Below the pieces are notes generated by a model. That model was not told where the DNA came from. It ran no database searches and was given only the letters and a program-made list of their open reading frames with translations. From assembly GCA_003971905.1 (NCBI GenBank), contig RSEE01000059.1:124001-188000 (forward strand): a stretch of 64,000 nucleotides of DNA, in the 5' to 3' direction. Shown piece by piece: positions 1 to 27,280 of this stretch (its first letter is position 1; every line of letters starts with the position of its first letter). The position numbers were made by a program, and so were the translations under genes. The stretch is from Moniliella sp. 'wahieum'. Its lineage: Eukaryota.

Positions 1-1484
1 TTTCACTGTCGATTTTAATTTGAGGTGATTTGGAGATGTCGGGTGGGAAGTGGTCGGGGTGGAGATGGGGGTAGATGGCGTTGCCCCATTTGTACGGTTT
101 CGACCAGCGGTAGGTGAAGGTACCCAGGGATGGTTGGTATGTGGCGAAGAGCCATCCCTTTGATCCGCGCTGATGGTGGTATCCTACCAGCATACCTTCC
201 TCTGCCCGCGCGCTGAGCTTGTGCTCGCGGCGTGACTCGGGCAGATGGAGGTATGCAACGCGGCCAAAGGGTTGCATCGGTAACGAGTATGCGTGGCCTT
301 TGTATCGCTCAAATCGCGATTTGTTGTCTTCCCCGGATGTTTTGAGTGGCATTTGGTTTTGGGTGAAGCACGCAGCGTGGAGGCTGTGTTCCCACCAGTC
401 CGACGTCGGAAGACCTGTACCCAAGAGCAACTGCCTTGCACGAGTCGTTATGGTTCGGATGGCACGCTCAGCCACACCGTTGCTAGCACTCTGCCCCGGG
501 ATTGTCCGTTCTGACGTGATGCCTTGCTCGTCCAGAAAAGGTTGCAGTGCGCTTGTCAATTCGGGGGCGTTCGTCGTTGTCCGTGCGCAAAGTCCGCAGC
601 AGTCTGTCCGGGCCGTAGCGTTGCTCCCGCAATATGAGGTTCCGCAGTTCCTTCGTTGCAGCGCCCTTTGTCGGGATCGCTGTGGTGAAGACGTACCGCG
701 TGAAGTCATCAACGGCGACGAGGGCGTATCCGTGCCCCATGCCGGTTACCCGGGGGAGGTCTACTACGTCGACGTGGAGGACCTCGAAAGGTCTTTTGGA
801 TCGGAGGCGGTCCCGGCTCGGATGGGGCGATGCTGTCGCTAGTGCCACCGCGCATGTTGGGCAATCCCACTCTGAACGACAGAGGGAGATATGCTTGGCT
901 GTGACGCGGAGGCCTGCGGTTTCCGATCGTGTAAGCCAGGGGAGGAGGTCGATGGCTGCGTGGTTCCAGCGTTTGTGGGCTTTAGAGACGTGGTCCAGGG
1001 CCAGGGATGCTGCGAGGGAGTTTGGGGTTGAGGGTGGGTCGGCCGGTTTGATCGGTTTGGTCGCCATGGCCCGCAGGGGTGTGGGTGGCGTTCGCGGGTT
1101 GTGTAAGATCGTGAATTGATAGTCACTGCCGGTTACTTTTCGTAGGGTGGATCCTGGGTTACCAAGCCAGATACCCTTCTGGTGTGGGGCGAAGTATGAT
1201 GCGATTCCGGTGTTCGACAGGTGTGCTACACTGACGAGATTTCGGCTGAAACGGGGCATGTATAGGCTGTTGGGGAGTTTTATCTCCATTTGGTGTCCTC
1301 CTAAGCATCGGATACGGATTGTGGCCGTGCCTCGTCCTTCCGCCTTTACATGTGTCCCGTTAGCAACCTCTATCTCGTCGTCGCAAGGGGTCATGGATGT
1401 GAAGACGGATTTGTCTTTCCAAATGGATGGGAATGCCCCACTGTCATATAATGCCCGGATGATTCGCATTTCGCCCCCGAGTTC
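1..1484 (-). CDS. pol: copia Pol polyprotein (aspartic protease, GAG-pre-integrase, rve integrase, SH3-like region), partial
   Basis: Motifs DSGA, IEVANG..KAEGRG, LYMPRFSRNLVSV, LHVDVV, VDDFTRY and LRTDN. After a frameshift near 570 the other frame reads PELTS...SNGVAERAIRT...HKLSARAEEGMLVGY and stays open to the window edge. Confidence 0.9.
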
Positions 1485-2732
1485 CTAGTAGTCAGCTGTG
1501 CCCGCATCAACGTCAATCACTTCAGACTCGGGAGAGCTCGCTCTCTGAGCGACGTGAGCGTTGGCTCGGCCTGGGTTGCGCGGAGGGACAACAGGTTTAT
1601 TAGACGTCGCGCTGCGCCAGGGTTGGTTGGTGCGGTCTTGCCCCTTGGTCTTTGTGTCCGCGAGGTTGTCGTCGCCGGCTTTGCCCCCGCTGGAGTTTTT
1701 TCCCCCGCTGGTGGGTCGTCCCCCGCTGTCGGGTCGAGTCCAAGGCGTTCCTCCGTTGACCGGCTTGCCTCCGTTTCTCTTCCTTTCTCCACCGGGATAC
1801 GTGGCGGCTGGTATGTCCATCACGGCCTGCCGTAACTTGTCTAGACTCGAGCGCTCTTCACGCTGGCGAATGCTCATGTCGCGTAAGCCGAGTAGGATCC
1901 CAGTGCGTTCCTGCTCTTCCGTAAGTGGGATGCCCGCTCGCGTCAGGCTTGCACTGATCTCTTCCATGTAGTCGAGGTAGTCTCGACCCGATCGGTTTCC
2001 TTGGTCGGCCGAAAAGTAGCGAATGAGTAGAGGCCCTCTGTTTGCGGTAGGCGTATATCCATACCGCTGACGCAGCATGTTCAGCGTGTCCTGGGTGCAT
2101 GATATTTCGTGGTGGGTGCGGATCGTCCGGAAGAGGGTTGACGGCATGGCTTCCCTAAGAAGGTTGTGCAAGCGTCTGTCGAGGTCCTCGGTGAAGTAGC
2201 GGGAGCTGCGACCATTCTGGACGACGTCGCTTGCGTGGGGGTGGGCATCTGTTATCGCGAAGAGAAATTCGTCTTCCCAAGCGCTGTAGGCGGACGGGTC
2301 TTTGTTCAGATCAGGCCACTTGATATTCTTGGTGGGAGACTCGCGTAGTGATCTGTAAAGGTCGTACTCGGGTCGCGAGGCTGCGCCTGTAGGTGCCCCC
2401 AAAGTTGCGTTGGGTTGAGTTTCCATTTGGTGGATGTTTTGCACCACAAAATTCGTAGCCCGTCGAACCCAGTTTGTCGTGATAGACGTAGGTTCGTCCT
2501 TCCATCCAAGCCACTCGGCTCTGTCGTGTATAGCTCTGTTGATCTTCTCTTTAACGACATCGATGTCGTTCGTCTTCTTGAACCACAGGTGCGCTTCGGC
2601 GCAAAGCATCATGAGTTCCTCGTTGTCGGTGCCAATCGGTGGCGGATCGCGACCGGTTGGTGTCCAGTAATCGCGCTTGTTCACCATTGTGGTGTCGCTG
2701 ACCGAGAGATCGGTGTTAGCGTTGGCGCCCAT
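1485..2732 (-). CDS. gag: retrotransposon Gag-like protein (~415 aa, no CCHC knuckle seen)
   Basis: Long ORF between the putative LTR and pol; capsid-like segment (YSAWEDEF...LRQRYG...DYLDYMEEISASL...GIPLTEEQ..ILLGL) followed by a basic Gly-rich tail; ends in TAG at 1485-1487. Confidence 0.8.
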   Translation of the reverse strand: MGANANTDLSVSDTTMVNKRDYWTPTGRDPPPIGTDNEELMMLCAEAHLWFKKTNDIDVVKEKINRAIHDRAEWLGWKDEPTSITTNWVRRATNFVVQNIHQMETQPNATLGAPTGAASRPEYDLYRSLRESPTKNIKWPDLNKDPSAYSAWEDEFLFAITDAHPHASDVVQNGRSSRYFTEDLDRRLHNLLREAMPSTLFRTIRTHHEISCTQDTLNMLRQRYGYTPTANRGPLLIRYFSADQGNRSGRDYLDYMEEISASLTRAGIPLTEEQERTGILLGLRDMSIRQREERSSLDKLRQAVMDIPAATYPGGERKRNGGKPVNGGTPWTRPDSGGRPTSGGKNSSGGKAGDDNLADTKTKGQDRTNQPWRSATSNKPVVPPRNPGRANAHVAQRASSPESEVIDVDAGTADY

Positions 2733-2778
2733 GGTTGTGGGTGTAGTTTTGGCCAGCTCAGGGATGAGCAGATAAGGA

Positions 2779-3026
2779 TGTAACTCTGTCGGCCTCGCTA
2801 CTACCACAGAATGTGAGCACTGAACGTCGTATTGGACTAAGAAGCTTCTGCGACTGACTCGTCCAGAAGACTGGTGCGAGCTCGGAAGGAATGAAAGCTG
2901 ACTCACGTGACTCAGGGTCCGCGCGGTCCTAGGACGGATGTCAACAGTCCGGACGTTGCGATCGGGGCGAGTACAACAGGAGGTGTTGACCACCAGTGGT
3001 CTAGAGCCCATCGGCCTTCAGTGACA
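2779..3026 (-). repeat. putative 5' LTR (~248 bp)
   Basis: On the minus strand it begins TGTCAC and ends GTTACA (TG..CA termini, imperfect inverted repeat), 46 bp before the gag ATG. The second LTR is not in the window, so the boundaries are unverified. Confidence 0.45.
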
Positions 3027-3555
3027 CGTGGCCCGATGCACACAGTGCACCGGGGCAGTGAGTTCCGGCCCTTCCACGGGTTTCCACTGGCCTCCAGGCC
3101 AGGAGCCTATCAAGGCCCATAGCTCTAGCTCTCCTTAGCTCTTGAATGCCATCTCCATCCATCATCGCCAGCATCGCTAGCTAGGCCTGTGACAGGAGGG
3201 GTGGCTGGGTGGCTGGCTAAGCTCTAAGCGAACTGATCGTCCGATTGAGGACCACCAATGATGGATGATGGGTGATCGATCATCGGTCATATATTCATCA
3301 ATGATCTCGATGATCCCGGTGGGCGCCAAAAAAGTGGGCGAGCCATCGACGGGGACCAAGTCGCCGACGACGCGCGCCTGGAACCTGCGACCACTGTTCA
3401 CTTGAAGCTTCAGGCCAAGCTTGACCCTTTCTTTGCGTTGGTTTGCTTTGCTTACTTCCCGGGCTACCACCACCATCTCCCCCACAGCTCTTTCTTGGTT
3501 ATCCTTCACCTCCGCCCTCGCCTTTCACGTCCCGCTTACCGCTTACCGATTCCCC

Positions 3556-4177
3556 ATGTCCGACCTGTACTCCCTCTCGGTGCCGTGGAAGAAGAGCACG
3601 TACGACTTTGCCCAGACCAAAGGCAAGGTGGTGATCATTTTCAACTCGGCTACCAAGTGCGGCTTCACGCCGCAGCTGGATGGGCTGGAGAAACTGTACG
3701 AGGAGTTCAAAGACCAAGGACTGGAAATCGTCGGCTTCCCCAGCAACCAGTTTGGTTGGCAAAACCCGCAGGGCGACGAGGACACAGAGTCCTTCTGCAA
3801 GCTCAACTATGGCGTCACCTTCCCATGGTCAACAAGAGGTACGCTCCCCCCCACCCCTTTCTCCCTCTCCCTCTCCCTCTCCCTCTCCCTCTCCCTCCCC
3901 ACTTTCGCTCCACCTCGCATCTATAGTAGCGACGCACCGAGTGGGAGCATTCATCTGACTGTGAGCTGGCAGCGACGTGAATGGAAACGACACGAACCCC
4001 GTTTTCAAGCTGCTGAAGCACGAAAAGAAGGGTGTGCTGGGGGAACGGATCGTGTGGAACTTTACCAAGTTCCTGGTGGACCGTAAGGGCAATGTGCATG
4101 CGCGCTACGCGCCGACCACCACCCCCGAATCGATCAAGGCCGAGATTGAAAAGTTGCTGGCTGAGCCAGCCGAGTAA
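3556..4177 (+). CDS. GPX: glutathione peroxidase family, Cys-type (Hyr1/Gpx3-like)
   Basis: Motifs [37 protein letters not shown] and [12 protein letters not shown]. Intron about 3839-3972 (GTACGC..CAG); one missing C near 3824. Confidence 0.95.
3861..3896 (+). repeat. (CTCCCT)n microsatellite in the GPx intron
   Basis: About 6 direct hexamer copies. Confidence 0.9.
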
Positions 4178-4931: not shown

Positions 4932-6669
4932 CTACCCATCCACCAGGGTGCAAGAGCGGAAGAGGGACCCATCCCCGTCGCTCCCACGTCCGTTGCGATC
5001 CACCCTTCTTCGTCCCCATCCAGCCCGTTCCGATGGCCGCAGAGGGACGGGGGGAGCATGGGTGCTCGTGCTGGGACACAGGCTGAGATCGGAACGGAGC
5101 GCGAGCGCCCGCGCATCCGCTACCAACCACTTGTACCACCCTATGCTGATGGGGATGGTAGATGCGTGCCAGAGGGCATGAGCATCGAGCGCCCGGCCGA
5201 GGGGCGGGAAGTCACTCCATTCCAGAACGACCGAAACGAGAAGACCGACACCAAGCCAGAACAGCTGAATGCGTCGCTGGGAAAGAGGAACAAGTTGCTG
5301 TCCCTCTGAGGCGGAAGAGGACGTGGACGTGCCCGACGCAGCGATCCAAGCGACATAGGAACCATGTGCGAGGCCGACCCGGGAGACCCGGGGGACGGAG
5401 TTCGGTCCTGCGCTTGCGTCGCACGCGCAAGCTGCAGTGACAGCTGACGCCGGTGCGTACCAGAGGGACTTGTGAGAGGGAGGGAAAAGCAGGTGGAAGA
5501 ATTGGCCTTGTGTAACTCCGAGGGATGACGAGGGAGATCGGAAACCATCTGCGAATCATGCTGCTGAAGAGGGGCATCGATGTGGAGCGACTCCATCATC
5601 AATGGGGCACTCGAGGTCGTCGTCGGGCTACGGTCCCGGCGGGCCTGCTCTCCAGGGAAAATTGAGGGCTGAGCGGCATAGAGAAGCAGGAGGGCGACTT
5701 GGACCAAAGCGAGCAGGATATTGATGGTTATATTGTAGCCGTAGTTGAACTGGCCAAAAAAGAGAAAGATGAGAATGTGGAACACGTAGGCAATCCCAAA
5801 GTAAGATCTCAGTCGGCGGAACCGCAGCTGGGATGAGGCTGGTGACGTTGATGGTAAAGCAGACACGGGGGAAGGGGGAAGGGAGGGTGTGGATGCATGA
5901 GTAGATGTGTTGGTAGAGGGTCGCGAGGAAAGACGCAACAAGCGAGCGAAAGTCAAGAAGGTGAGATGGAACAAGACCGAACTGGCTGACATGGAATCCA
6001 GTTTCTCAGTCCACCAACGAGTATGGGCATGGAAAATAACCGACCAGAAACAAGCGTGGACCGCAAGAAAGGTGTGAGGAGATAATGGTGTTTCAGGGGG
6101 AAAGTGTCTGGTGTCCGGCTCCAAAGGAGATGCATCCCCCAAAGCTGGGCTGCCAGGTTGCCCAGGCTAAACAGCACGCTGAGTGGTTCCTGCGCCGAAA
6201 AAACGCGGACAAAGACCCACCTGCCATGGTACTTGACCATCCTCCTCTGAATTTCGGGTAAGGAAGCCAGTCGAGCCGCCACCACGTCCTCCTCCCGCGC
6301 TGTTGTCCGTGTGGCCAGTGGGTCGGGACTGGTCGAAGTAAATTGGAGATGAACGAGGTGGCGGATGTGCTCTACGCGGGCCTCGGCCTGGTTGGTCAGC
6401 TGGTGGGTGCAATGGTAAGCACAGTCGTCGCGGCAGCTCCAGGGGGACAGGCGCTGAGCCCAGGAGAGCTGCTTGGGGTTGCGTTCGGGACGGCCAGTGC
6501 GGCCGTCGTCCACACCATCGGGGCCACACACGTCAGCGTAGCAGGAGGATACACAACTCTGGTACTCGGGCGCCTGGTCGCCAACGGATGCGGACAGTGG
6601 GAGCGGCGCTAAGGCTCGCCAAAAAAGAGCGGCGGCACAGAAGAATGCGGGAAAGCAACAGATGCGCAT
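4932..6669 (-). CDS. PER1: Per1/PGAP3 GPI lipid-remodelling protein (3' end uncertain, frameshifted)
   Basis: Signal peptide followed by ASVGD..EYQSCV..C, WSCRDDCAYHC, KYHGRWVFVRVF..QEPLSVLFSLGN, WSVIFH...WTEKLD, FNYGYN and DFPP..LDAHALWHAST. Confidence 0.9.
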
Positions 6670-8124
6670 TGTGCGGGGCACACGAGTGGCAGGTGGGGGT
6701 CCGTGGCTGTCGGGCCACCGCCGGGAGAGAATGTACGGGAGGGAACGGAGTGGGAGAGGATGAGCGGAGGAAGAGGAGGCCTTGCTGAAAGAGGCTGACG
6801 AAGAAGGCGAACGTTGGCGGGGGCGCAAGACAAAAAAAGGACGAGATGCAGGGGGGAGGGGTGGACGAGACGTGGGTTGAATATTGAGGCACCAAAGAGA
6901 CCCGAGACGGCGAGGCTGCCTGTGTACTGACTGAATGTCATCGAGGCTGTCACGCCAAGAGGACTGGGCGAGCGAGCTTCGCTTAGGCGGTGCGGTGGGG
7001 CTGCACCCTTGCTGGGTATGAAACTGCGTGGCCAAAAAGACATCACGCGTGCGGACGACCAGTGGGACCATCGATCATCGATCAGCCTACCCCGGATGGG
7101 CGCAGCCTGCGCACTGCCCCAGCCCCGCCGGCGCCCCCCGCCTGCTCGCTCGTGCCCACCGTCTCACATGGCCAGTCTAGCTAGCCGATACTCGTAGCCA
7201 CGCCTGCCTACGCGCTGTGGCGGATGGGTTCACGCGCGTTCACGTTGAACGCGTTGAACGGGTAAGCGCTAAGCGCAAGCGGAACCCGTGGAGGCTTGGC
7301 GTGAGGCTCACGCCGAGCACCTCTCCCAGCAGCGCACAGCTTCGCTGGAGGCTTCAAGCTTCAAGCTCCAAGCAAGGAGCTTCAAGCTTGACTTGAAGCT
7401 TCAGAGCTTCAGATGTCCCATGGCTGGCTTCAGCTTCCCCGCCTTCTCCCTGCTTCTTCCAGCGCGCTTCCCACCCCACCGCCCCACCCCTCTTCCCCGA
7501 TCTGAGATCGGCAGATCTCCACCCTTGTCCACCCCGGCCCCATCGTGCATCGAATCCCGTCCCTCCTTCGCCACCCAACAGAGCGCTCCACGCTGCTGCC
7601 CACCGCCGCCCAGTGCCACGTCACATGTGGCGCACATCGCCCCCTCACGCATCAGCACTGCCTCCGGCTCAGGAGCTGCACTGCTCCAGTCTGCTTCCGG
7701 CATCTGCAAGTTTCAATCCGAGCTTGGATCTCCGCTTAAAACTGCAAGTTTCAGATGTCACCCTTCCCTGGGGGTGCCATCCGTCACGCGTCACCCCACC
7801 CTGCGCCGCCGCCATCGCCCATCTTCTCAAACGACACACAACCAGCGTCCACCGTCCAACACGTCTCCATCTTCCCCACACTATGTATGGCCAGCCAGCA
7901 ACATGCTCCCCGCCGCACTGCTAATCTGCCAGGGCCGAGCCTTTAGCTTAGGCCTCACATAGCCTTTCTGTGCTTTGCAGGATAGACACCATGCAATAGT
8001 ACGCGCCAGCAAGCGCCTCATCCACTTCATCATCAGCTGATCGTTCAGGGTTTTCCAACTCCACCCCCATCCACCTCTCTCTGCGAACCCGTTCCGTCCG
8101 CCGCCTTCTGCCCGCCCTTGCGCA

Positions 8125-22477: not shown

Positions 22478-24930
22478 ATGCGCGTCGTGCCCCCCCTCGG
22501 TGCTGGTCACCGTCCTGCGCCCTTGCCGGCGTTCCGGACGACCTGCAGTCGGCCAGTGCGAGCAACACTCGCCAGCCCAGCCTGCTCTCCCGCTCCATGG
22601 CCTCGCTCCGGCGCCGAGTGACGCCTACGCGACCCATGGGTGCCGGTCATGATGCACAGCCGTCGCAGCCGGACACGCGCCCGCTGCTGAGCGCGGCGGA
22701 TGCGTACCTGTCCTTACCCGACCAGCCCCAATACCACCAGCAGGACCGCGGCGCCGGCTGCTCGCCCGACATGGCCGAACTTGCGCCACCCGCCGACACA
22801 AGGGCACAATCCACTGTCACCTCCACCGACACCTACCCAATCCTCAGGCCCAGTTGGGATTACGTCAATGTCACCGAGCCCTCGCTCTTCATCCGGCCAC
22901 TCGTCCTCCGCTCCACTCGCCGACACCCTCGGTCGCGGTCTTGACCCCGCCCCCTTCTCCGGTTCCGGCCCCGACGCCCAGCTGCACCCCCACCCATACT
23001 CATCAGGGCCAGGTGCCACTTCTCCATGGCCCATGGCTAGTACGCCCTCGGGCTGCTCGACGAGCCCGAGCCTCCGACCCACGACGAATCCCGAAACCAG
23101 CTTCTCCCGTCGACCCTTAGTCCCAGTGCCCCTCCGTCATGGACTGCGTTGGGCCTCGGTCGCCGCCGGCGAAGCAAACGCCAACGTGTCCCCACCGACG
23201 GCCCCCCGCCAAAGGCCGGGCGTTGTGCATCATCCTTACCCTTTTGCCTTGTTCGTCTGTCTCGGCGTGGGGTTGGGTGTCGGTCTGGGGCTGGGTCTTC
23301 CGAAACGATCCTCACACCTGGCCGCCAGCGGCCATATTAAGCTCCCCACTCCCCCCACAAATGCTGTCTTTCTTCGCTGGGCCCCTTGTCCGGGCCAAAC
23401 GGAGGCAACAGTACCGTTGATGCACTCCAGCCGCTGGGCTGACCCGGCGGGAGAGGCAGTCAGTAATGCCACTCTCGGCGTGGTGGTCCAGCATGGCATT
23501 GATCGCGACTTTCAAGTGGCTTTTTCCGACCTCGCACCGCTGTTGGACCTGAGCTCGGCAGTGCTTATCGCCCCCAACTTTTACTTGCCTAGCGACTCAC
23601 CTACCCTCAACCACACAAGCAACACCTACTCCAACTGGTACAATGCCTCTGAGACAATGGCATGGAACAACTTCACTGATTGGGTGGGCGGGGCCGACCC
23701 TGTTGCGCCCAACTCCTCTCTTGTCTCTTCAAACCAAATGGTCGGGAAAGCAAGCAATGCAGCACTTACGACGTCTACGACGGTCTGGTTGCTCTCTTGG
23801 CCAATACTACACTCTATCCTAATCTGCGACACATCATCATTGCTGGCCATTCGGGGGGGGGCGCGTTCGTGGCTCGCTATGCGCTCATGGCCGCCAATCC
23901 GCCCGTCGCGCCCCCAGGGCATACCAATGTGACGGTCCGATATGTTCACGCCAACAGTCCCAGTTTCCCTTACTTTAATACCATCCGACCCACCGCCACA
24001 AGTGATCTGGACTGCCCCGGCCAGAACAAGTGGATGTACGGGTTGAATATGCCAAACCGGTATGCCGCCAAGCGGCTCGCCAAACCCGTTCGAGCACTGT
24101 TTCGGTGCGTATCCCCCCCATCCCCATCCCTGCCCAGTTGTGAGCCTGGTGGCACTACTAACCCCAACTATCACCCGATCAGACGGTACATCGAGCGAGA
24201 CGTGGTCCAGTTGCAAGGAAACCTGGATACCCGGGCTCAATTCCCCAATGACGACTACACATGCGAGGTGGAGGCGCAAGGCGGCGACGACACCAGAGAT
24301 CGCAATTATGCCTGGTGGATCTACAAGAACCTCATGGCCGGCTCACCAACCAACGTGACAGCGCTGCCTTTCTATACCAACCTAAGTGCCCTCATCGCTC
24401 CTAGCACAGCATTCGAGGTCACCACGCTCCCCTCGACCACCCCCTCAAATCCGGGATCGGGGTCGGGGTCAGGATCGGGGTTGGGATCAGGGTCCAGGCC
24501 GTCCTCCATCGATTCGTCCAACGGATACCTTGTTTCCGCTGCGACACGGCCGCAGGACCATCTCCTGGGCATCCGCCCTTTCCGTCATCGCTTTTGCCTC
24601 GTGGATAACGTGGGCCATGTGGAACAGCTGATGTGGAACTCGAGCTGTGGCAAGGCCGCGTTCGACCCTTTACAAGGCACCCCAACCACTCTTAATGTCA
24701 CATCCACCACCGGTTGGCCTGCTTTCCAGCCTCCGCTGTCGTCATCTTCTTCCCTTCAATCGCTGCATCCCGCAGGGCCGAATAATCCCTTTCCGAACCT
24801 TTCCGAACTGCTTTTTTTTCATTCGGCCCTCATCACCATTGTATGCATCTCACTTTCCTCGTTGCGCCCAACTGGCTCCATCCCCTCTTCTTGCCCTTGC
24901 ATTTCTTTCTCTCGGCTGGGCCGGTCCTGA
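22478..24930 (+). CDS. membrane-anchored alpha/beta-hydrolase-fold protein (start uncertain, frameshifted)
   Basis: TM segment (LFVCLGVGLGVGLGLG), VVVQHG oxyanion-like motif, IIIAGHSGGG nucleophile elbow, RYVHANSPS, QGNLD and VDNVGH; many N-glycosylation sequons. Confidence 0.75.
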
Positions 24931-25408
24931 CGACGACCAGTCCGCCAGAGCCGCACCTTTTCCTCGTTCTGTCTCTGCTTATGTTACTCTGCTTTGTTGA
25001 TCACCTCCAGCACCCGTCTTCATCGAGGTCCTCCTGGACACTCCACCCCTGGTCCTCTCCTTTTTTTGCGCCTTCGCCATCCCTTCCCTCTCTACCTGCT
25101 GCCATGTCGATTCTTGCATCACAATCTCCCCACAAGTGCCCCTCCCCGACAATAAAAAAGGAGCGCCACCTTGAACAACGTGAGTTGCCTAGCCGTACTT
25201 TCTGTCCACGGTCTACGATCCTATTCGATGTTTGCGCCTTTTGTATTACCGAAAAAAATGGTGTTACATTATGGACATTGCAGCGTACAAACAACTCAGC
25301 CAAGGCGAGCTGGATATTGAATCCCGCCCCGAAGGATAGAAGCGTTTCTGGCCCAAGAGGGAAATGGGCGGGCAAGCGGGAAAGGAGAGAGAAAGGCAGG
25401 AATGAAAG

Positions 25409-27280
25409 TCACACCTCGGCCCGTTCGCGGACCAAGCGCAAGTACGCACTTTTCGTTAGTCGTCGGAAGGTCTTGCCCCAGATCATCATGGGGATACAGA
25501 GCAAAATAAAGAAGAGGTCCAACACGGCACATGCAATCATCGTGTTCTCAATCCCGCTTGCATCGATCCAGGGCTCTGTGCATACAGTTCGTCAGTCGTC
25601 CGGGCATGGCTCTGTGAGGAAGGGAGCTGGAGCTGGAGTAAGGAGGCGGCGGAAACGTACCAACAGCAAACGTGAATCCACATGCCATGCCGTTGTTGAT
25701 CAAAGCAATGCATGCCATGCCTATACATCAAATGTGATCCACAGGGGTCAGAATCATTCCACCACTTTCATAGTTGGGGAGGGAGAAAGAGAGGGGCAGG
25801 AGTAAAAGACGTACCTTCCATCACACAGTCCGGGTAAGCTTCTGCCACATAGTCATGGACAAGTCCCACAGCAGCCAAAGCCAAAGCCAATGAAGCCGAG
25901 CGCCACATACGGCGCACCCCAGGACCAGCCCCGGGCAGTTCCGATCCCAAACACGAGCATGCCAATAAAGCTAATGAAGGCGGCCGGAATCATAAACCAC
26001 AAGCGATCCTCCGCTTCACGACGGCCCTGGCGGCGGGACGCGAGCCAAATGACAAACTTGTCGTTGAGCCAGCCGCCACAAACAGCCGATCACCGAACCG
26101 ATCAAGCAAGGCACGTTCATGATCCCGTCGGCAGCATCGCCATAGTTCCAAGGTGCCTCTGTCCAGTTGTCCTCCTCCAGGGTGAGGTAGAAGGAGAGCC
26201 AGGCGTCTTGGGCACCCCATTGCAACCACATGTAGAGGATGGCAGGGAAGAAGAGCAGACAGGTCAAGCCGAGGCGTTTCCAGTACTGCACAAAGCCCGT
26301 GCCCTTTAGGTTGTGGGCGAACGTAATGGGCTGGATGCTTTCCCAGTAAGTTTTTTCCGCTCATGCGCCCGGGAGCCCGATCCGGGGGCCAAGGCACCCG
26401 ACTCGAGCAGCGTAGGGCGCAATCCCATCCCCCTTGAGATTCTTCTCCTTTTCCAAGCTGGTGTTGGATCCAATCTCATGGTCTGGCGTGGGCATGACCA
26501 CCGTCTCGGCCACCAATGGCTCCCGGTTAAACATGGTCTCCTCCATCCCAAATAGCAGGACCACGATCGTGCCCGCCGAGATGATGACGGCCCACCATCC
26601 AATCCAGCGCCAGCCAAACGTTTCACTGTCTGCAATAAAGCCAGCGATCAGAGGGCCAATGTACGTGCCGATGGAGGTCGCCATCACGTACAAGCCCAAC
26701 GCCGCACCACGCTGGTGGTCAAACGACACGTCGGTCAGTGAAAGTTGCACGTTGGCCTCGGCGCACGACTCGCTTGCGCCGACAAACAGTTGGTTCCAGA
26801 TCGAATCACTGGGCGTCTGGATCTTGGCAAACCAGATCGCCCCGGCCAACCCGACAGCATCGACAGCATGTACACACACTTGCGCCCGTACAGCCACGGC
26901 AAGGGCGCGGTAAAAAAGGTGACAAGACCAATAGCGGCAAACAAGACGCCTTTTGGTAGTTTAATAAGAGGAAAAAGAGGCAAACAGGTCAGCCGACATA
27001 CATCGGGATTCGACCAGAATACGTACCAGCGCCGGTGTTGGCGTACGAATAAGAGATGCCCAGTTGGCTCTCCATGCCGCCCTGGCCTGAGCCGGCGTCA
27101 TGGATGTGGCGGCGGTGAGGCCGACGAGGTAGCAGCACAGCAGGCCGTTCCAAAAGCGACGGCTCCAGTGCCAAGTGAGCGGGTCGTTGGGGGAGTCGGT
27201 TGGGATGGGAAGGAGGATGATCTCGTTGTGATCGAGCAGCTCCCACGAACCGGGAAGCTCCTCCGGTGGGACAAGGCCAT
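25409..27280 (-). CDS. MFS transporter, HOL1-like, multi-exon
   Basis: LLPIPTDSPNDPLTW, LYGRK, NQLFVGASESCAEANVQLSLTD..DHQRG..LGLY, GPLIAGFI..GWRWIGWW, QWGAQDAWL; C-terminal WGKTFRR...RERAEV*. Confidence 0.88.

Follow-up and report, generated by a model that had tools for sequence, protein, structure and literature searches.

The DNA analysed here, called the window throughout, is a stretch of 64,000 nucleotides (nt) from Moniliella sp. 'wahieum' (assembly GCA_003971905.1, contig RSEE01000059.1, positions 124,001 to 188,000 of the forward strand). The minus strand of its first 2946 bases contains the 5′ part of a long terminal repeat (LTR) retrotransposon in which gag and pol occupy one frame and are separated by a single UAG. 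Comparison at the protein level indicates that this stop, TAG at 1487..1485, is probably the native, inherited terminator of gag, and not a lesion of one copy. The parts of the element are listed below in window coordinates. P0001 and P0002 are proteins related to its Gag and Pol, respectively, and X1 is a food-metagenome DNA run that contains part of the element (share 0.12).

2733..2946, minus strand: 5′ LTR and leader; TG at 2946 is placed as the LTR start by the divergence of an X1 contig there
1488..2732, minus strand: gag, 415 codons, open frame from the ATG at 2732
1485..1487, minus strand: in-frame TAG, probable gag terminator at the gag/pol junction, from direct reading and from the homologous end of P0001
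1404..1484, minus strand: region 3′ of the stop, 80 nt, with a candidate pseudoknot; no signal above background
486..1484, minus strand: first part of pol, in the gag frame, 333 codons, coding for protease, the HHCC zinc finger of integrase and the first part of its core
568..574, minus strand: 7 extra bases relative to the near-identical X1 contig, breaking the integrase frame, from contig comparison
2..574, minus strand: remainder of integrase in a shifted frame, with SH3_retrovirus at an E-value (E) of 1.1e-08, running off the window edge within the open reading frame (ORF) 2..712, whose 3′ end is open

Organisation of the element and its gag/pol junction

The order of domains, protease and then integrase, identifies the element as Ty1/copia type on sequence grounds. 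Within the window the Pfam domains of Pol follow one another as Pol_BBD, rve and SH3_retrovirus. Pol_BBD, the protease barrel, matches residues 13-93 of the part downstream of the stop (E 2.8e-12), and rve, the integrase core, is matched with E 4.1e-06 and 27.4 bits, which is under the curated cut-off of 32.6. The protease motif LYDSGA is present, its Asp codon lying at 1445..1443 on the minus strand. P0002 carries rve, SH3_retrovirus and then the copia-type RVT_2. The window edge at base 1 cuts the element, and reverse transcriptase (RT), RNase H and the 3′ LTR lie beyond it. At the other end, the LTR perhaps finishes at the CA at 2813..2812, which would make it about 135 bp long. The putative LTR is followed on the minus strand by TGGTAGTAGCGAGG (2806..2793), and the TGGTAG at 2806 may belong to a primer-binding site. 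No repeat and no second copy of the element were found within the window.

The minus strand reads GAC TAC TAG GAA CTC GGG GGC GAA ATG CGA ATC ATC CGG GCA TTA TAT GAC AGT GGG GCA across the junction (1493..1434), which translates as D-Y-stop-E-L-G-G-E-M-R-I-I-R-A-L-Y-D-S-G-A. With the standard code, a single frame runs through it as ...VIDVDAGTADY-stop-ELGGEMRIIRALYDSGAFPSIW. Counted from the stop, an ATG is the sixth codon and the catalytic Asp of DSGA the fourteenth. There is one stop, gag and pol share a frame, and 415 open codons are followed by 333 more. Direct reading and translation thus reproduced the letters, frame and distances given in a preliminary description of this DNA, and its account of the element as copia-type, with one UAG dividing a frame shared by gag and pol, was borne out.

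The same description called the TAG the only stop, which is correct until integrase is reached. Within integrase, near 568-575, the reading is interrupted: the original frame meets a stop at 485..483, while the coding sequence continues in another frame in 574..2. Two other sequencing runs, X2 and X3, contributed no piece of the element. X1 pieces cover 415-614, 877-1129 and 2852-2946 of the window, and the contig recorded for 415..614 lacks the 7 bases at 568. When they are left out, the integrase reading agrees with TDNAPELTSAL of P0002. By this comparison the window copy is either defective or misassembled at 568-574. Leaving aside the TAG and this single break, the copy has about 940 open codons and is therefore young. 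A further X1 contig of 463 nt matches 2852..2946, which are the 95 nt at the start of the LTR, and is unrelated beyond 2946. Divergence at exactly this position marks the end of the element and shows a second insertion site elsewhere. The contig suggests that the element, or a solo LTR, lies at another site in another sample, and thus that mobility has been recent.

Gag, its relative and the origin of the stop

The position and size of gag fit the gene expected between LTR and protease. The protein has no zinc knuckle and its tail is rich in Gly, Arg, Lys and Pro. Gag (415 aa) matched no Pfam family, even at E up to 5, and its profile gave only chance-level matches to the PDB sequences (E 0.42 or worse). 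An AlphaFold2 model is helical over residues 37-305 but of low confidence, with a predicted local distance difference test (pLDDT) score of 40.4. By protein-atlas features, which give no more than a lead, Gag lies nearest to a TYA Gag cluster (0.90) and to copia gag clusters (0.88).

When Gag was compared by phmmer with 1,835,955,588 representative proteins, one match was obtained at E<=0.001. This protein, P0001, is 410 aa long and comes from a 5089-nt Logan contig; residues 86-413 of the query align with its residues 90-408 (E 1.7e-17). In BLASTP the two proteins are 28% identical (E 9e-25). P0001 itself has a sub-threshold match to Retrotrans_gag, with E 0.084 and 13.5 bits where the cut-off is 24.1. 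Both BLASTP and MAFFT aligned the two C-termini without gaps. Gag finishes ...AHVAQRASSPESEVIDVDAGTADY-stop and P0001 ...AHIATEDDISEGEILSVDLALSDK-end, and the last residues, ...VDAGTADY and ...VDLALSDK, terminate at the same column. The common C-terminal pattern is ...E.E[VI][IL].VD....D, then one residue, then the end, and conservation between Gag and P0001 extends through the final 14 residues of Gag to the stop. Among the same representatives we found none, whatever its length, in which this type of gag is fused to pol.

Relatives of Pol were similarly few. The start of pol is 64% identical to P0002 over 135 residues of integrase. P0002 is a protein of 1004 aa, on a contig that is also 5089 nt long, and begins only at the integrase zinc finger. 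In a longer-length search with the Pol part, two of 3874 candidates were retained, P0002 and P0003, the latter being an ordinary single-ORF copia element with 27% identity. Near-length protein searches retained none of 22 candidates for the protease part and none of 1928 for the Pol part, and the junction segment had no match among the PDB sequences. Scans of nucleotide collections were equally unproductive. Metagenome contigs gave 247 pattern matches with the gag alignment and 193 with the pol alignment, and viral contigs gave 43, with none confirmed in any of the three scans. Among genome contigs there were 17 pattern matches, two of them flagged as encoding a relative, from which no locus was recovered. 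The lineage to which the element belongs is probably small and poorly sampled within Ty1/copia, to judge from these searches, in which about 15 billion proteins yielded two members.

The stop is judged probably native because P0001, the sole detectable relative of this Gag, ends at the homologous column (one of one relatives, at the protein level). Since the end column is shared, two independent nonsense mutations would have had to strike the same one of about 415 columns, which is very unlikely. With identities of 28% in Gag and 64% in integrase, the stop would therefore have been in place during a long history of replication. The preliminary description had considered a substitution artefact at exactly this site less likely, and the end of P0001 at the homologous column, in a protein only 28% identical, makes a private nonsense mutation or an error unlikely.

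The alternative is that the family normally has a single gag-pol ORF and that this TAG is a private mutation or an assembly error. The integrase of this copy does carry the 7-base difference that breaks its frame. Overlaps between host ORFs in different frames are frequent in the window, which indicates that the assembly or the locus is not free of error, and neither a second copy nor a read covering the TAG was found. Against this, beyond the shared end column, stand the lack of any fused protein with this gag among the 1.84 billion representatives and the nature of the visible errors, which are indels and not substitutions. Moreover, the TAG is the sole in-frame stop in about 750 codons and falls exactly at the expected gag/pol boundary. 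We regard a private lesion as quite improbable.

Translation of Pol

LTR elements need Gag in large excess over Pol. In the present element most ribosomes would stop at the TAG at 1487..1485 and yield Gag. The predicted pol, comprising protease, integrase and, beyond the window, RT/RNase H, would be in the gag frame without a start of its own. Because pol lies in this frame directly behind a conserved terminator, a bypass of the terminator would be needed for Pol to be made. In our judgement the balance tips slightly towards occasional decoding of the UAG by a near-cognate tRNA, which would produce a Gag-Pol fusion. That the bypass is readthrough, how efficient it may be and whether a cis-acting signal assists it are all matters that we infer. 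The preliminary description had proposed that UAG suppression sets the Gag:Pol ratio of the element; this is still the simplest inference from the layout, but neither a structural nor a context signal for it was detected.

A number of observations weigh against readthrough at an inherited stop. Comparative support comes from a single relative, compared as protein only (n=1), and the raw-read and contig coverage from X1 lies outside 1201..2800 and hence off the TAG. P0002 begins at the zinc finger, and from its sequence the protease of the relative may be broken, in another frame or uncalled. The window copy, as assembled, has a broken integrase frame and could not complete a cycle. The context of the stop, UAC UAG GAA CUC, matches none of the leaky contexts quoted in the available parts of three papers: it lacks CARYYA after the stop (PMC2194720, PMC3441728), C, CU or CUAG after the stop, as quoted for UGA, and AA before it (PMC10085805). 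For Tca2 (pCal), a copia element of Candida albicans, Pol was concluded to come from gag-UGA-pol RNA, yet its junction alone did not direct readthrough (PMC2194720).

RNA structure at the junction was equally unremarkable. The 91 nt from the stop onwards fold at -19.9 kcal/mol, compared with -21.19 ± 3.16 for dinucleotide shuffles (z +0.41), an energy equalled or bettered by 126 of 200 shuffles. Junction windows of 60, 90 and 120 nt, starting 2-11 nt after the stop, lie between the 42nd and the 70th percentile of the element. Pairings suggested by eye in the preliminary description do exist as two stems of a candidate pseudoknot, S1 of 6 bp (+4..9 with +26..31) and S2 of 5 bp (+15..19 with +49..53), with a stacking energy of -18.3. 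They are, however, no more than chance gives. Our own H-type enumerator, a simple and crude one that a non-standard structure may escape, finds a pseudoknot as good or better at 21% of 956 codon positions, and none at 31%. The first possible stem begins 3 nt after the stop, as against an 8-nt spacer in murine leukaemia virus (MuLV) and Tca2. Rfam returned no match at E<=1 over window positions 1..3200. On the evidence of the fold energies, the percentiles, the frequency of equivalent pseudoknots and the Rfam search, the stimulatory hairpin or pseudoknot that had been proposed was not upheld. A tRNA scan of the window found no genes, so no suppressor tRNA was seen there. A model of the junction with the TAG read as Q had a pLDDT of 35.2, too low to use.

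A native stop would also be compatible with separate translation of Pol from the AUG at 1469..1467, by reinitiation, by internal entry or from a promoter in the junction. This AUG is in frame, 15 nt after the stop, and has a purine at -3, and the absence of a detectable readthrough signal in the fold, percentile and pseudoknot tests counts in favour of a separate start. We favour a fusion because, with a start at this Met, no more than 8 residues would precede the catalytic Asp, and because Gag is conserved over its final 14 residues as far as the stop, in keeping with an uninterrupted Gag-Pol or a cleavage site. Packaging of Pol into particles normally needs a Gag moiety. As for reinitiation, no UGGGA-type motif is visible in the 110 nt before the stop. 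Tca2 offers an argument on each side: its gag-pol junction contains a minor promoter, but its Pol was concluded to come from LTR-driven gag-pol RNA and not from that promoter (PMC2194720). Separate initiation appears rather unlikely.

Splicing would be another way of joining gag to pol, through removal of 36 nt (1520..1485, minus strand) that include the stop and leave the frame intact. The stretch reads GTGATT...CTGAC...TAG, with CTGAC 8 nt before its end, and its length is a multiple of three; the host intron of a glutathione-peroxidase-like gene (about 3822..3972) likewise has CTGAC before CAG. The putative 5′ site, however, has no G at +5, whereas the one host intron read has GTACGC, and very few fungal introns are as short as 36 nt. 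The protein sequence of the stretch is moreover conserved in P0001, and P0001 lacks a Val codon at the position homologous to the 5′ site. We consider splicing most improbable.

We also noticed, post hoc, that a 12-nt stretch starting 2 nt past the stop (AACUCGGGGGCG, 1483..1472) matches the complement of 569..558 in integrase at 11 of its 12 positions. This second site lies some 900 nt farther downstream and adjoins the 7-base difference. The arrangement resembles long-range pairings by which readthrough is activated in some plant RNA viruses. Partners of this quality exist for 0.6% of the 2934 12-mers in the element, or for about 3% of sites within the 7-nt range of starts. The duplex energy at the junction is unremarkable (-29.4 against -25.6 ± 3.9), and 19.5% of 123 positions do as well. 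Retention of the distal arm is accounted for by its coding for the conserved integrase residues N-A-P-E-L, which is sufficient by itself. The pairing is probably a matter of chance. We give very little credence to the idea that this sparse copia lineage bypasses UAG-G through distant pairing and without a local signal. If true, such a mechanism would be without precedent among retrotransposons, and could account for non-canonical bypass of the Tca2 type. The remaining probability we assign to mechanisms that we cannot name. This share is not idle, because of the failure of the Tca2 junction alone to direct readthrough.

Other features of the window were recorded in passing. A very stable hairpin is predicted at 150-275 (minus strand), in the sequence coding for the C-terminal part of integrase, at -69.8 kcal/mol compared with -43.2 ± 3.7 for shuffles (z -7.18; none of 200 shuffles as good); no other part of the element comes near it in predicted structure. 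Host ORFs overlap in different frames at 5144-7074 (minus strand) and 22691-25805 (plus strand); examples are two Per1-like pieces and three ORFs of 339-416 aa. Such overlaps suggest indel errors in the assembly, or introns. For the enolase used to place the host, the best PDB sequence matches were 1els and 1ebg, titled ENOLASE and enolase 1 and both from yeast, in keeping with a fungal host; its atlas features were uninformative on taxonomy. A GAGGGA-type microsatellite lies at about 3840-3900, inside the apparent intron of the glutathione-peroxidase-like gene (plus strand), a gene named by eye.

In-frame gag/pol stops in other elements

We compared the junction with systems described in the open-access literature, as far as the text of each cited paper was available. 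In-frame stops between gag and pol are listed for Tca2, SIRE1 and MuLV (PMC2194720). Tca2 comes closest, as a fungal copia element with gag and pol in one frame and a single stop (PMC2194720, PMC7175516). It differs in having UGA, an 8-nt purine-rich spacer and a predicted pseudoknot, whereas the UAG-G of the window element is followed neither by a purine spacer nor by structure exceeding background. Its gag is 972 bp long, compared with 415 codons here, and the phmmer search of representatives detected no sequence relation between the two Gag proteins. As a precedent for readthrough, which the preliminary description had taken it to be, Tca2 holds with respect to the in-frame stop but not with respect to the junction, given that readthrough was not obtained from the local sequence alone (PMC2194720).

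VdLTRE5, a copia element of Verticillium dahliae, has UGA between gag and pol, LTRs of 159 bp and, as described in the available text, no CARYYA (PMC3441728). Compared by description, it resembles the window element in its copia type, in-frame gag/pol stop and lack of CARYYA, and probably in its short LTRs; it differs in having UGA in place of UAG and an ascomycete host. Its authors call the in-frame stop layout very rare (PMC3441728).

Outside the fungal copia elements, Moloney MuLV shares UAG followed by G and a pol in frame with gag. Downstream of the MuLV UAG lie an 8-nt spacer rich in purines and then a pseudoknot, and about 5% readthrough produces Gag-Pol (PMC2194720). MuLV differs from the window element in needing the spacer and pseudoknot, neither of which is detectable here. 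The fission-yeast gypsy elements Tj1, Tosmo1-3 and Tcry1 have a conserved in-frame TGA between gag and pol (PMC10085805). They too are fungal LTR elements in which an in-frame stop is kept among relatives, but they belong to Ty3/gypsy, and their TGA lies within a strictly conserved 8-nt GAA-TGA-CT, a known leaky context, which the context in the window is not.

An in-frame gag/pol stop in a fungal copia element is thus already described, in Tca2 and in VdLTRE5 (PMC3441728), and is rare. In the open-access literature we found no fungal copia element with UAG at this junction, which is not proof of absence. What is new in the window element is the use of UAG in place of UGA, a Gag without a Pfam family, and a lineage with one relative in the protein collections searched.

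Of the solutions known among copia elements, an in-frame stop is the rarest, and even in Tca2, the best-studied case, the junction alone did not direct readthrough. Taken alone, the element adds one example and leaves existing knowledge unchanged. As a second, unrelated fungal lineage with UAG at the junction and no recognisable local signal, it would be a useful comparison case for the question posed by Tca2.

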